Below the pieces are notes generated by a model, which did no database searches, was not told the DNA's origin, and saw only the letters and a program-made list of their open reading frames with translations. A DNA stretch of 64,000 nucleotides from a virus, in IMG/VR virus record IMGVR_UViG_3300046387_001332. One strand, 5' to 3'. Below, in pieces: positions 17,636-54,584 of this stretch. The position numbers and the translations under genes were made by a program. Position 1 is the first letter of the stretch; each line of letters begins with the position of its first letter.

Positions 17636-18262
17636 ATGGCTAAAATGGATAAAGATGATTTAAAGTACGTTATTAAACGATCAAAAAAACTATTCGCGGG
17701 TGAAGAAATACCAAAGGTACATGGATATGAAGGTGAAAAAGAAGAAGTAAAAGTTCGTGCAGTTGGAGAAATATGGACTGACAAAGACGGAAAAGAGTGG
17801 AAACAAATTGGTGCTAATACCAAAGTTAGAACCGAAACCGTGTTTGACAAGTTAAGAAAAATAGCAAGAACCGCTCCAAATTGTCCCAAAGAAGTTTGTA
17901 CCTGTGATACTACTAAATTTTTAGATAAACGAATGGTTGCTATGAAAGGATTGTGTTTTGATTGTGTTCAAGAACATGAGCAAAAGTTAAAAGACGAAGG
18001 AAAGTATGAAGACTACGAAAAAAAGACAATGCTTGAAAACGAAAAAAGTTTTTTGTTAGATGCTAAAATCAAAATGGGTGAATCTAAACATTACATTGAA
18101 AATGATCCTCAATTTCTAAATGAAGATGGTTCTCTTGAAAAGTGGAATATACCCGAAAAGTCTAAATTATTAGATGAACTTAATGCCGACATCACAGAGG
18201 TTGATGATCGTATTAAGAGTATTGAAAAAGAACTTGAAAAATTTTCACAATGTGATTTTTAA
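17636..18262 (+). CDS. Hypothetical protein upstream of terminase, Cys-containing
   Basis: GEIWTDKDGKEWKQ, CPKEVCTC and CFDC; acidic coiled-coil C-terminus. Confidence 0.7.
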   Translation: MAKMDKDDLKYVIKRSKKLFAGEEIPKVHGYEGEKEEVKVRAVGEIWTDKDGKEWKQIGANTKVRTETVFDKLRKIARTAPNCPKEVCTCDTTKFLDKRMVAMKGLCFDCVQEHEQKLKDEGKYEDYEKKTMLENEKSFLLDAKIKMGESKHYIENDPQFLNEDGSLEKWNIPEKSKLLDELNADITEVDDRIKSIEKELEKFSQCDF

Positions 18263-18289
18263 AAGATTCAACGATACCTTGAAACTTTT
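18261..18289. repeat. 29-bp inverted-repeat element, copy 1 (AAAAGATTCAA-CGATACC-TTGAAACTTTT)
   Basis: 28/29 identical to the copy at 53682-53710; 11-bp arms around a 7-bp asymmetric spacer. Confidence 0.85.
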
Positions 18290-18328
18290 TATATTATAGA
18301 AAATTAAATACATATATATTTATCCTTA

Positions 18329-19930
18329 ATGGCAGGAAACCAAAAAGTACCATTAAGGGAAATAATAAAACAAGAGTATACAGAGTGCTTAAAGTCACCT
18401 ATATACTTTATGAAAAAGTATTGTAAAATCCAACATCCAACACTTGGTACTATACCTTTTCATTTATATGAATTTCAAGAAAAAACTTTAGAGAGTTTTA
18501 AAGACGAACAATTTAATATTGTTTTGAAGGCACGTCAGATGGGAATATCCACACTTGTATCTGGATATGCTCTGTGGTTAATGACCTTCTTCACCGACAA
18601 ATCAATTCTATGTATTGCCATTAACCAAGAAACTGCAAAGAATATCGTTACTAAAGTAACTCATATGGCAGATTTTCTACCTTCGTGGTTACGAAGTGAG
18701 TGTACAGAAAAAAACAAGTTAAGTATGAGGTTTAAAAACGGAAGTAATATACGTGCGGCCTCAAGTAGTGTGGATGCTTCTCGTTCATCCTCTCTGAGTT
18801 TACTTATCGTGGACGAGTGTGCGTTTATTACAAACATGGAAGATATATGGACTGCATCGCAATCTACAATTACAACGGGTGGTCGTTCTATTCTATTATC
18901 AACTCCAAATGGTATCGGTAACTTTTTCCACAAAACTTGGGTTGGTACTATGGACGGATCAAATGACTTCAATCCAATTAATTTGCATTGGTCATTACAT
19001 CCTGATCGCGATCAAAAGTGGAGAGATTTACAAACAAAAGTTCTTGGTGAAAAAGACGCAGCCCAAGAATGTGATTGTGACTTTATTAGCAGTGGTCGTT
19101 CGGTGGTAGACGCAAGTTTAATTGAGTGGTACAAAGAAAATACAATGCGTGAACCTGTAGAAAAAAGAGGAGCAAACAAAGAATATTGGATATGGGAATA
19201 TCCAAACCACAACAAAGATTATGTAGTTGCGGCCGATGTTGCGAGAGGAGATGGACGAGATAAAAGTGCTTTTCATGTATTTGATGTGGAAGGTGTGAGA
19301 CAGGTTGCTGAGTTTAAGGGTGAAGTAGAAACAAAAGATTTTGGTAATTTATTGGTTGCAGTTGCAAGTGAGTTCAACGGAGCATTGTTGGTAGTGGAAA
19401 ATGCAAATATAGGTTGGGCGGTGTTACAACAGATTATAGATAAAGGATACAACAATTTATATTACACTCAAAGAGATTATCAATACATAGATGAGTTTTC
19501 ACAACATACAAATAAATTAAATAGAATGGAGAAGAAACAGGTTCCCGGATTCACAACATCTATTAAAACTCGTCCATTGATTATCAGTAAAATGGAACAA
19601 TATGTTCGTGAAAAAGAAGTTGAAATTGTTTCAGAAAGAACATTAGAAGAACTTTTTACATTTGTATGGAACGGACAAAAAGCAGAAGCAATGCAAGGAT
19701 ACAATGACGATTTGGTTATGAGTTTATGTATTGCACTTTGGGTTCGTGATACTGCATTACGATTTCGTTCGGAAAGTATTGAAACACAAAAAAGTTTATT
19801 TGATTATATGGGAAGTACAACTAACATGGATGTTGGTAAAAATTATCGTCAAAATGGACTTGAATCAAATCCATATGAAATGAAGAACCCACGTGGAGGA
19901 ACTGAAAGTTTAGATTGGTTGCTTCAATAA
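18329..19930 (+). CDS. Terminase large subunit (T4 gp17-like)
   Basis: LYEFQ Q-motif, KARQMGIS Walker A variant, LLIVDE Walker B, LSTPNG, QECDCDF, nuclease ADVARG..D and DDLVMS. Confidence 0.95.
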   Translation: MAGNQKVPLREIIKQEYTECLKSPIYFMKKYCKIQHPTLGTIPFHLYEFQEKTLESFKDEQFNIVLKARQMGISTLVSGYALWLMTFFTDKSILCIAINQETAKNIVTKVTHMADFLPSWLRSECTEKNKLSMRFKNGSNIRAASSSVDASRSSSLSLLIVDECAFITNMEDIWTASQSTITTGGRSILLSTPNGIGNFFHKTWVGTMDGSNDFNPINLHWSLHPDRDQKWRDLQTKVLGEKDAAQECDCDFISSGRSVVDASLIEWYKENTMREPVEKRGANKEYWIWEYPNHNKDYVVAADVARGDGRDKSAFHVFDVEGVRQVAEFKGEVETKDFGNLLVAVASEFNGALLVVENANIGWAVLQQIIDKGYNNLYYTQRDYQYIDEFSQHTNKLNRMEKKQVPGFTTSIKTRPLIISKMEQYVREKEVEIVSERTLEELFTFVWNGQKAEAMQGYNDDLVMSLCIALWVRDTALRFRSESIETQKSLFDYMGSTTNMDVGKNYRQNGLESNPYEMKNPRGGTESLDWLLQ

Positions 19931-19952
19931 CAAAACAAAACGGAGAAAACAA

Positions 19953-52828: not shown

Positions 52829-53247
52829 TGGACACGGACGAATATCTTAATAAAAAAATATATACTGATCTCTTATCAAGAAAAGGTTCATTGAAGGCAG
52901 CCACTTTTAGTGAGTTTCCTGAGCAGATCAAAATAAAACCAGAAGTAGATGACTACAAGAATAAATACTTTACTCGTTACTTCGTAATAAAAGCAAGTGA
53001 TAAAAATGGGGTAATTTTTGAAGTAGATGTAGCAAAGTATAATGAACTTAAAAAAAATCCCTTTTATAGATGCGAACTTTTGCGTTGGAAAATCTCAGGT
53101 GTGTATAGAAGTGAGTATGATAATGGCATTATGATAGAAGAGGGTGTAGTAGATTTTAATGAAAAGGCATTTAATCGTCTTCGCAAAAAAATGCCAGATG
53201 TACAAAATAAAATAAAAAGTCTTACAGAATTTTATAAAGCAAATTGA
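52828..53247 (+). CDS. Hypothetical baseplate-region protein
   Basis: TAATG-coupled; DYKNKYFTRYF..WKISG. Confidence 0.6.
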   Translation: MDTDEYLNKKIYTDLLSRKGSLKAATFSEFPEQIKIKPEVDDYKNKYFTRYFVIKASDKNGVIFEVDVAKYNELKKNPFYRCELLRWKISGVYRSEYDNGIMIEEGVVDFNEKAFNRLRKKMPDVQNKIKSLTEFYKAN

Positions 53248-53272
53248 CAAATTGAAAATATTATTATATTAT
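53244..53272 (+). promoter_or_regulatory. Sigma70-type promoter for the polymerase gene
   Basis: TTGACA-N17-TATTAT. Confidence 0.65.
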
Positions 53273-53282
53273 ATTTTTCAAG

Positions 53283-54584
53283 ATGTTTTTGTGTATTGAA
53301 ACAAAAGAGGATGTAAAGTTATTGAGTAATACTTTAAAAAGTGGGACTGCACTTTTTTATTATTTGTTTGAACCAAACTATCATCCTGTTACTAAGAAGG
53401 TTTGTGTTGTGTTCATTTACCATTTAGAGACTGATTCTCTTTTTTTGATTTCGTTTAGTCATCCCGATGTAGTTTTAATGGATAAAAACATATTAAACTA
53501 TATCAATAATAGTAATTGTAAAAAATACATACTAAATAAAAAAGATTCAATGTATGTCAGTGATGTCAGTTCGTATACTGATTTATTATTTGAAATGTAT
53601 TGTAAGACAGGTAATTTATTTGAATACAAATTACCACTTAATAATTCTGATATTCGTTCAATACCAATAATGTTAATTAAAAAAAGTTTCAACGATACCT
53701 TGAAACTTTTAAAACCTCATTTAAACACATACGAAAATTGCAACTTTTCGAGTGATTTATGTAAAGCATTTTATGAAATTGAAAAGAATGGAATTTATAT
53801 AAATCATGAAGTATATAATTTAGGATCAACTGATTTAATTCACGATAACGGATGTGTGTATAGTCAATATAACTATTATACTCCAACTACTCGTCCAAGT
53901 AATAGATTTGGAAAAATAAACTTTGCGGCTTTGAATTCAAAGAAAAATGAAAAAGATTCCATTGAGAGTAGATTTGGTGAAGATGGTATTTTGTTTATGG
54001 TTGATTATGAAAGTTATCACTTGAGATTGTTTGCTAACCATATAAACTTTTCATTACCTGAATCTTCTTTGCATGAATATTTTGGAAAGTTTTATTACGA
54101 TAAAGAAGAGTTAACTGAAGAAGAATACGAGATGTCCAAAAAAATTACATTTAACTTAATTTACGGTGGAATCTCTGATGATGTAAAAGAACACATCCCC
54201 TTTATGGCCGAGGTTGTAAAATATGTAGAATCGTGTTGGGCATCATTTAATAAAAACGAATACATTGAAACTTGGTTATACAATCGTAAATTATACAAAA
54301 AAAACTATGATTCAATGAATTCATATAAACTTTTTAATTACTTACTACAAAGTGCAGAAACTGAAAGAAATACAAAATTAGCATTATATCTTAATGGCGA
54401 ATTTTCAAAATTAAAAAGCAAAGTAATTTTATATCATTATGATGCATTTATAGTTGATTTACATAAGTCTGAAATTTCACATACCAAAAAAATTATTGAA
54501 AAACTTACAGATAATAACAAATTTCCACTGAGAGTATATGTCGGTAAAAATTATGGAGATATGTCTAAGTTAAGTGTTTGCTAA
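53283..54584 (+). CDS. Short, divergent family-A DNA polymerase
   Basis: TTRPSN..NFAAL, motif A VDYESYHLRL, motif B KKITFNLIYG, NYLLQ, motif C HYDAF. Confidence 0.8.
   Translation: MFLCIETKEDVKLLSNTLKSGTALFYYLFEPNYHPVTKKVCVVFIYHLETDSLFLISFSHPDVVLMDKNILNYINNSNCKKYILNKKDSMYVSDVSSYTDLLFEMYCKTGNLFEYKLPLNNSDIRSIPIMLIKKSFNDTLKLLKPHLNTYENCNFSSDLCKAFYEIEKNGIYINHEVYNLGSTDLIHDNGCVYSQYNYYTPTTRPSNRFGKINFAALNSKKNEKDSIESRFGEDGILFMVDYESYHLRLFANHINFSLPESSLHEYFGKFYYDKEELTEEEYEMSKKITFNLIYGGISDDVKEHIPFMAEVVKYVESCWASFNKNEYIETWLYNRKLYKKNYDSMNSYKLFNYLLQSAETERNTKLALYLNGEFSKLKSKVILYHYDAFIVDLHKSEISHTKKIIEKLTDNNKFPLRVYVGKNYGDMSKLSVC
53682..53710. repeat. 29-bp perfect inverted-repeat element, copy 2 (AAAAGTTTCAA-CGATACC-TTGAAACTTTT), inside the polymerase gene
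   Basis: Perfect 11-bp arms; same spacer and orientation as the copy at 18261. Confidence 0.85.

Follow-up and report, generated by a model that had tools for sequence, protein, structure and literature searches.

Dispersed, gene-embedded quasi-palindromes are putative recognition sites in uncultured T4-like phages

Bacterial chromosomes and a few model phages are well known to contain binding sites that are dispersed over the genome and embedded in its genes; the inverted repeats of phage N15, for example, are dispersed palindromes of the centromere type. For T4-like phages, we know of no sequence-specific system of this kind, and these phages are generally thought to replicate and package their DNA without one. 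In phage SPP1, the origin-binding protein gp38 has one site, oriL, inside gene 38 and another, oriR, in the late region (PMC6316719). Occupancy of oriR is believed to block the fork and thereby to switch the mode of replication (PMC6316719). Here, we describe a 29-base element in a 64,000-nucleotide stretch of viral DNA (IMG/VR record IMGVR_UViG_3300046387_001332; "the window" denotes this whole stretch) that carries T4-type terminase and portal genes. The element is a putative few-copy recognition site, embedded in genes, in a phage group for which none has been described.

Two copies had been noted in a preliminary description of the window, each as an 11-7-11 quasi-palindrome, and this pair is confirmed. 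Site 1 (18261–18289) and site 2 (53682–53710) both lie on the + strand, 35,421 bp apart, and are identical at 28 of 29 positions, a match that none of 100 dinucleotide-preserving shuffles reproduces. Site 1 begins inside the TAA stop codon of an open reading frame (ORF; 17636–18262, + strand) and lies 40 bp ahead of the gene for the large terminase, TerL (18329–19930, + strand). Its stem contains one A·A mismatch, and its loop reads CGATACC. Site 2 has perfect 11-bp arms and lies in frame within a PolA-like ORF of 433 amino acids (aa; 53283–54584, + strand), where it encodes residues 134–142, KSFNDTLKL. The computed RNA folds have energies of −4.1 kcal/mol (z −2.3) for site 1 and −8.9 kcal/mol (z −4.9) for site 2. 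The earlier view that two sites bracket the virion module holds in part: the genes for TerL, the portal, the major head protein, the tail sheath, and the tape measure do lie between them, but the picture was incomplete, as a third copy is present in the window and more are found in relatives.

These further copies were detected by scans of whole records and with a covariance model derived from sites 1 and 2, which score 53.5 and 58.9 bits, respectively, and used on the window and on the whole records of relatives. Background matches in the window score at most 21 bits, apart from one 26.4-bit look-alike in the portal gene (20969–20997, minus strand). We attribute the latter to chance, as close relatives show free variation in its codons for Gly, Ile, and Leu. 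Site 0 (8615–8643, + strand; model match 8611–8648) is a degenerate third copy, with 28.3 bits, an E value of ~0.004, the loop TGATACC, a short stem, and an 8-nt loop register. It sits 9.6–10.6 kb upstream of site 1, in frame (KNFDDTFEI) within a glycosyltransferase-like gene (8321–9259, + strand). Its position is kept in 10 relatives, and two rare codons recur there, ACC in eight of eight sequences and GAC in five of seven. Site M, with 38–43 bits, is located 80–84 kb upstream of TerL in G002, G011, and G013. It has the same genome strand as the other sites and lies inside a methyltransferase-like gene of opposite direction, so that it is antisense to its host gene. Site 3 (41.6 bits) is in sense orientation within an AstB-like gene of G008, 36.5 kb downstream of the PolA copy. 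No orthologues of the AstB-like gene were found in IMG/VR, and site 3 is represented by one contig. A weak look-alike at position 140115 of G002 has no counterpart in the window and was set aside.

The positions of the sites are conserved well beyond the window. The records of G002, G009, G011, and G013 (115–170 kb) each carry sites 0, 1, and 2 at constant spacing, and the distance between sites 1 and 2 is 35.0–36.2 kb in six genomes, with gene order unchanged. Site 1 lies upstream of TerL in 22 IMG/VR contigs and is present in inverted form in three more. Exact matches to the central 23-mer occur in 21 IMG/VR contigs, and 11 more have a one-base TTCGA variant; in all 32, the match falls at the TerL-upstream or the PolA position, with flanks that are only ~60–80% identical. 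None of these 32 contigs has chimeric flanks. Site positions are kept across uncultured marine phage contigs whose PolA proteins are only 45–70% identical, and the three element-carrying host proteins that were compared are unrelated to each other. Sites 1 and 2 thus belong to a family of at least 4–5 sites in a genome of ~200 kb, most of them inside genes. Dispersed copies in relatives had been named in advance, in the preliminary description, as favoring a binding site over a recombination pair, and such copies are what the scan returned. No cultured close relative with the motif was found, and no Rfam family matches it.

The copy inside the PolA-like gene was examined in a codon alignment of 18 PolA orthologues with 43–70% aa identity. 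Within residues 133–143, the codons AGT, TTC, ACC, TTG, and CTT are common to 76–100% of the sequences, compared with 13–29% usage elsewhere in the same genes. The 12 best of 362 sliding windows of synonymous conservation all overlap residues 129–150, which form the strongest peak of the gene. PolA genes that are ~49% identical in aa sequence share an identical 33-base stretch. Because the top windows of synonymous conservation fall at site 2 and rare codons are kept there, selection at site 2 acts on the nucleotide sequence. A K-x-F-[ND]-D-T peptide as the main cause of the signal was rejected, given that rare codons are kept, that site 1 is non-coding, and that the host proteins are unrelated. 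A frameshift signal at a slippery run was also rejected, since the A run is not conserved, as was the insertion of a mobile mini-palindrome; distant PolA homologues are equally long at this place, and only L034 and L035 lack 4 codons. In L034, L035, and L036 (G007), PolA lacks the four codons for N-D-T-L, and site 2 is lost, whereas perfect sites 0 and 1 are retained. Individual sites are therefore dispensable.

What is conserved across the family is the center. The GATAC core is invariant in all sites, where it follows purine-A and any one base and is usually followed by C; most often, it stands within purine-A-C-GATAC-C-T. The arms pair in most copies and differ between sites in one genome; in G009 and G006, sites 0, 1, and 2 share the core only. 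The sites thus do not evolve in concert. Arm changes can be found on both sides, for example TTTAGA/TCTAAA versus TTTCAA/TTGAAA. In L117, two pairs have changed on both sides, and in L224, a C-G pair has become a U-A pair via two synonymous substitutions. In L225, pairing is retained solely via four G·U pairs, and in L230, a compensated one-base frame shift alters the peptide while the nucleotides are kept. Paired cells amount to 89.4%, compared with 87.7% in shuffles (18 of 500 as high) and with 61–65% when the partner is slid by one column. Double-sided changes are present in two of 11 pairs, and the covariation statistics are supportive but modest. On the + strand, G·T cells outnumber A·C cells by 22 to 6, which perhaps corresponds to 10 versus 5 events. 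At site 1 of G006, in L231 and L234, and at site 3, the core is kept and the stem is nearly gone, and many copies fold weakly, at 0 to −2 kcal/mol.

Site 1 is the only non-coding copy. It is an exact inversion in G011, G012, and G014, and sites 0 and 2 of those genomes are not flipped. In G013, site 1 (L274, ~1485–1515) is a perfect 13-bp palindrome with a 3-nt loop and a fold of −14.2 kcal/mol. Changes of this type are textbook quasi-palindrome mutations, with a clean inversion of the center in one subclade and a "perfecting" change in another (L274, L280 = G011, L258, L262, and L263).

Several described systems resemble parts of this arrangement. The likeness to SPP1 is that one factor, putative here, would serve a few distant sites, of which one lies in a replication gene and one in the late region of virion genes. 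However, the SPP1 sites consist of direct repeats beside an AT-rich unwinding element, whereas hairpin-forming quasi-palindromes are found here, at 4–5 sites, with a reader that is putative. The sites are also unlike an initiator-bound origin, in that a lone quasi-palindrome occupies every position and the flanks lack iterons. Chromosomal parS sites are also few, short, palindromic protein-binding sites in coding regions, spread over tens of kb and conserved at the nucleotide level. In parS, abutting half-sites are conserved, whereas here the center is conserved and the arms vary, and the phage is T4-like and presumably lytic. A parS system was rejected because the ParB_N domain (PF02195) is absent from the records of five relatives. 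Likewise, neither Phage_integrase (PF00589) nor Resolvase (PF00239) was found in the five records (G001, G002, G006, G008, and G009; 77–152 kb, 39–75% complete).

Hairpins read as nucleic acid structures offer a second group of comparisons. The boxB sites of lambda with N/Nun and the translational operator of T4 gp43 are protein-bound RNA hairpins, and they share with the element a short stem, a sequence-specific loop, covariation in the stem, and several copies per genome. They differ in that they occupy untranslated leaders in a fixed orientation, whereas the copies here lie in ORFs, one of them antisense, and the non-coding copy can be flipped. The hairpin promoters of the N4 virion RNA polymerase have a 3-nt loop and stand directly upstream of early genes. 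They are similar in being DNA hairpins of low copy number in which bases of both loop and stem are conserved and one strand is read; however, a virion RNA polymerase is not seen here, and 600–900 bp separate the sites from the next gene. In T4, gene 16 reportedly contains a pac sequence with a 24-bp homologue in gene 19, as in the synapsis model of the Black laboratory. As here, the gene just before that for the large terminase has a short repeat at its 3′ end, and another copy lies deeper in the late region. The T4 copies are said to be ~3 kb apart, to form no hairpins, and to have been found via amplification products, and the 208-aa protein encoded upstream of TerL in the window is a small-terminase candidate by position. 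Finally, the PeSLs of T4-type phages are repeated elements that can recombine; they are ~100 bp long, GC-rich, numerous, and strictly intergenic, and they flank variable ORFans (PMC2839356, PMC4122927). Site 1 resembles them as an intergenic stem-loop, with a promoter and then a start codon after it. The resemblance is limited to site 1, in that the family here has 4–5 copies, of which only site 1 is intergenic, is associated with conserved genes, and shows no recombination products.

We favor the interpretation that the sites are binding sites for one putative sequence-specific factor that acts on DNA, with a probability of roughly 45%. Each site evolves separately yet stays near the same consensus, which argues for one shared trans-acting reader. 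Site 1, the one copy in which a flip is unconstrained, has flipped and yet persists, which points to recognition at the level of DNA, and this level is further favored because symmetrization of site 1 is tolerated, site M is antisense, and the core outlasts pairing. The reader would most likely be a sequence-specific DNA-binding protein of the phage, and the core may be recognized on duplex or on transiently extruded DNA. By analogy with the SPP1 origin-binding protein and with parS-type sites in genes, its role would be in genome-level organization, either through control of replication or of forks or through recognition for packaging. Along a genome, such a factor would encounter site M ~84 kb upstream of TerL, site 0 10 kb upstream, site 1 at TerL, site 2 36 kb downstream, and site 3 72 kb downstream. 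Site 1 probably does double duty: given that it stands at the exact place of the phage's terminator hairpins, it would also end the transcript of the 208-aa gene ahead of the TerL promoter. The fallback of the preliminary description, a binding signal of the operator, partition, or packaging type, fits the evidence.

Several observations weigh against this interpretation. The binding protein is putative, and the five relatives' records lack a ParB, an integrase, and a resolvase. A conserved center with covarying arms is the classic pattern of a protein-bound RNA hairpin, whereas dimeric DNA operators usually conserve their arms. The double-sided changes in L117 and the C-G to U-A change in L224 count here, and the excess of G·T over A·C cells on the + strand suits single-strand folding. 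Sites 0, 2, and 3 are all in sense orientation. Site M comes from two lineages, in a stretch where the protein itself is conserved, and site 3 comes from one contig. Moreover, template switching in quasi-palindromes could, with no selection involved, yield both the flip and the symmetric changes in the arms.

The main rival to recognition on DNA is an RNA regulon, which we consider rather unlikely. A stem-loop in + sense would present an apical heptaloop to an RNA-binding protein, a nuclease, or a complementary small RNA. It would attenuate, cleave, or stabilize early mRNAs, namely those of the glycosyltransferase-like, PolA-like, and AstB-like genes, and would give the transcript upstream of TerL its 3′ end. 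A regulon of this type would resemble the boxB/N–Nun sites or IRE-type regulons. It would account for a loop that is conserved over a stem that varies with compensatory and G·U changes, for the exclusive use of G·U pairs in L225, and for the nucleotides kept through the frame shift of L230. The sense orientation of sites 0, 2, and 3, the terminator position of site 1, and the z score of −4.9 at site 2 are also consistent with it. However, site 1 is inverted in one subclade and symmetrized in another, yet is retained in both, and site M is antisense to its gene, so that a fixed sense orientation does not hold. The weak folds of many copies, the lack of an Rfam match, and the modest covariation, with 89.4% against 87.7% paired in shuffles and two double-sided pairs, likewise argue against an RNA regulon.

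One particular form of DNA-level recognition appears distinctly unlikely to us. The sites would then be polar, same-strand signals on single-stranded or extruded DNA, read by a new phage protein and maintained via synonymous selection in at least four unrelated genes. Examples might be programmed sites of fork pausing, priming, or nicking, or terminase-recognition sites that organize replication and packaging of a large T4-like genome.

Site 1 could also be a plain intrinsic terminator, with the intragenic look-alikes as historical copies or as coincidences under selection for the K-x-F-[ND]-D-T peptide; we judge this very unlikely. Site 1 is followed by a T run, and 26 bp separate its end from the promoter-like motif TATATTTAT (18315–18323, + strand), which precedes the ATG of TerL by 5 nt. 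The order of stop codon, hairpin, T run, promoter motif, and ATG is the layout of this phage at its terminator hairpins in other intergenic regions, and the hairpin survives the flip. The copies within coding sequence are all read in one frame and encode similar peptides. On the other hand, the true terminators of the phage are GC-rich, whereas the stem of site 1, at −4.1 kcal/mol, has only two G-C pairs and was not flagged in a terminator scan. Sites 0 and 2 are intragenic, with conserved rare codons and unrelated host proteins, and at site 1, the core is kept where pairing is lost (G006 and L120). The earlier argument that a conserved asymmetric spacer speaks against a simple terminator is sound.

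The proposal that a tyrosine-recombinase pair excises or swaps the terminase-to-baseplate block, or more broadly that recombination sites (dif/lox/att-like duplexes or attC/IS608-like folded single strands) excise, invert, or exchange the virion module, is scarcely credible and is rejected because no integrase, resolvase, or ParB was found in the five records (39–75% complete), no chimeric junction in the 32 contigs, and no gene-order change: the 11-7-11 geometry, the identical spacer and direct orientation of the copies in the window, and the strand specificity of hairpin-type recombination sites agree with it, but there are more than two sites, partner sites have the center rather than the arms in common, their relative orientation differs from genome to genome without rearrangement and at the constant spacing given above, and the intervening block is essential.

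A conserved element of few copies that is under synonymous selection in polymerase, glycosyltransferase-like, and methyltransferase-like genes, and that has a further copy at TerL, points to an undescribed layer of genome organization or gene control in an abundant group of uncultured marine phages. It also supplies a short, defined bait with which the reader protein could be sought. One speculative candidate for that reader, by position only, is the 208-aa protein whose gene (17636–18262, + strand) ends in site 1. The gene occupies the slot where T4-like phages have the small terminase and is preceded by a near-consensus sigma-70-like promoter match at 17601–17629. Its product combines a 4-Cys motif that is conserved (C-P-K-x-x-C ... 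C-F-D-C) with a long coiled coil at the C terminus. No family was found for it in Pfam, PHROGs, NCBIfam, or PDB sequences, and its AlphaFold model, with a pLDDT of 64, is too weak for a fold search.

The window has ~32% GC, as the DNA of an AT-rich phage, and its genes are all on one strand. Its nearest cultured relatives are Flavobacterium and Microcystis phages, which are distant. In addition to the terminase and portal genes, it carries SbcD/SbcC-like genes, a UvsX-like gene, and a PrkA-DUF444-SpoVR block. The glycosyltransferase-like gene with site 0 lies between the SbcD-like gene (7630–8334) and the SbcC/Rad50-like gene (9249–11849). The replication module is very divergent. The 433-aa PolA-like ORF gives a weak DNA_pol_A match, below the Pfam threshold, and its homologues in Flavobacterium phages are annotated as family A polymerase. 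Upstream of the polymerase, genes for 987-aa and 139-aa proteins (49865–53247) are without any family. IMG/VR labels the T4-like contigs G002, G008, G011, and G013 as "provirus". This label is doubtful, at least for G002 and G008, because an integrase search of these two contigs found none (G011 and G013 were not searched).

The motif TATATTTAT occurs 18 times in the window (1374–60706), compared with 2.6 expected, and 14 of the copies are on the + strand. Most + strand copies lie 5–15 nt before start codons that have no Shine-Dalgarno sequence; examples are found at 11864, 18315, 22482, 27843, 30889, 37128, 47152, and 54593. The motif is probably the main, perhaps late, promoter element of the phage, and it would fit a host of the Bacteroidota type. 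GC-rich hairpins with T runs follow structural genes at 27790–27815, 30850–30885, 37095–37125, and 40160–40200. These hairpins are the ordinary terminators of the phage and are clearly unlike the AT-rich 29-base element. Downstream of the polymerase, the trio of PrkA, DUF444 (YeaH-like), and SpoVR genes is intact at 55060–59896 and is kept in relatives.

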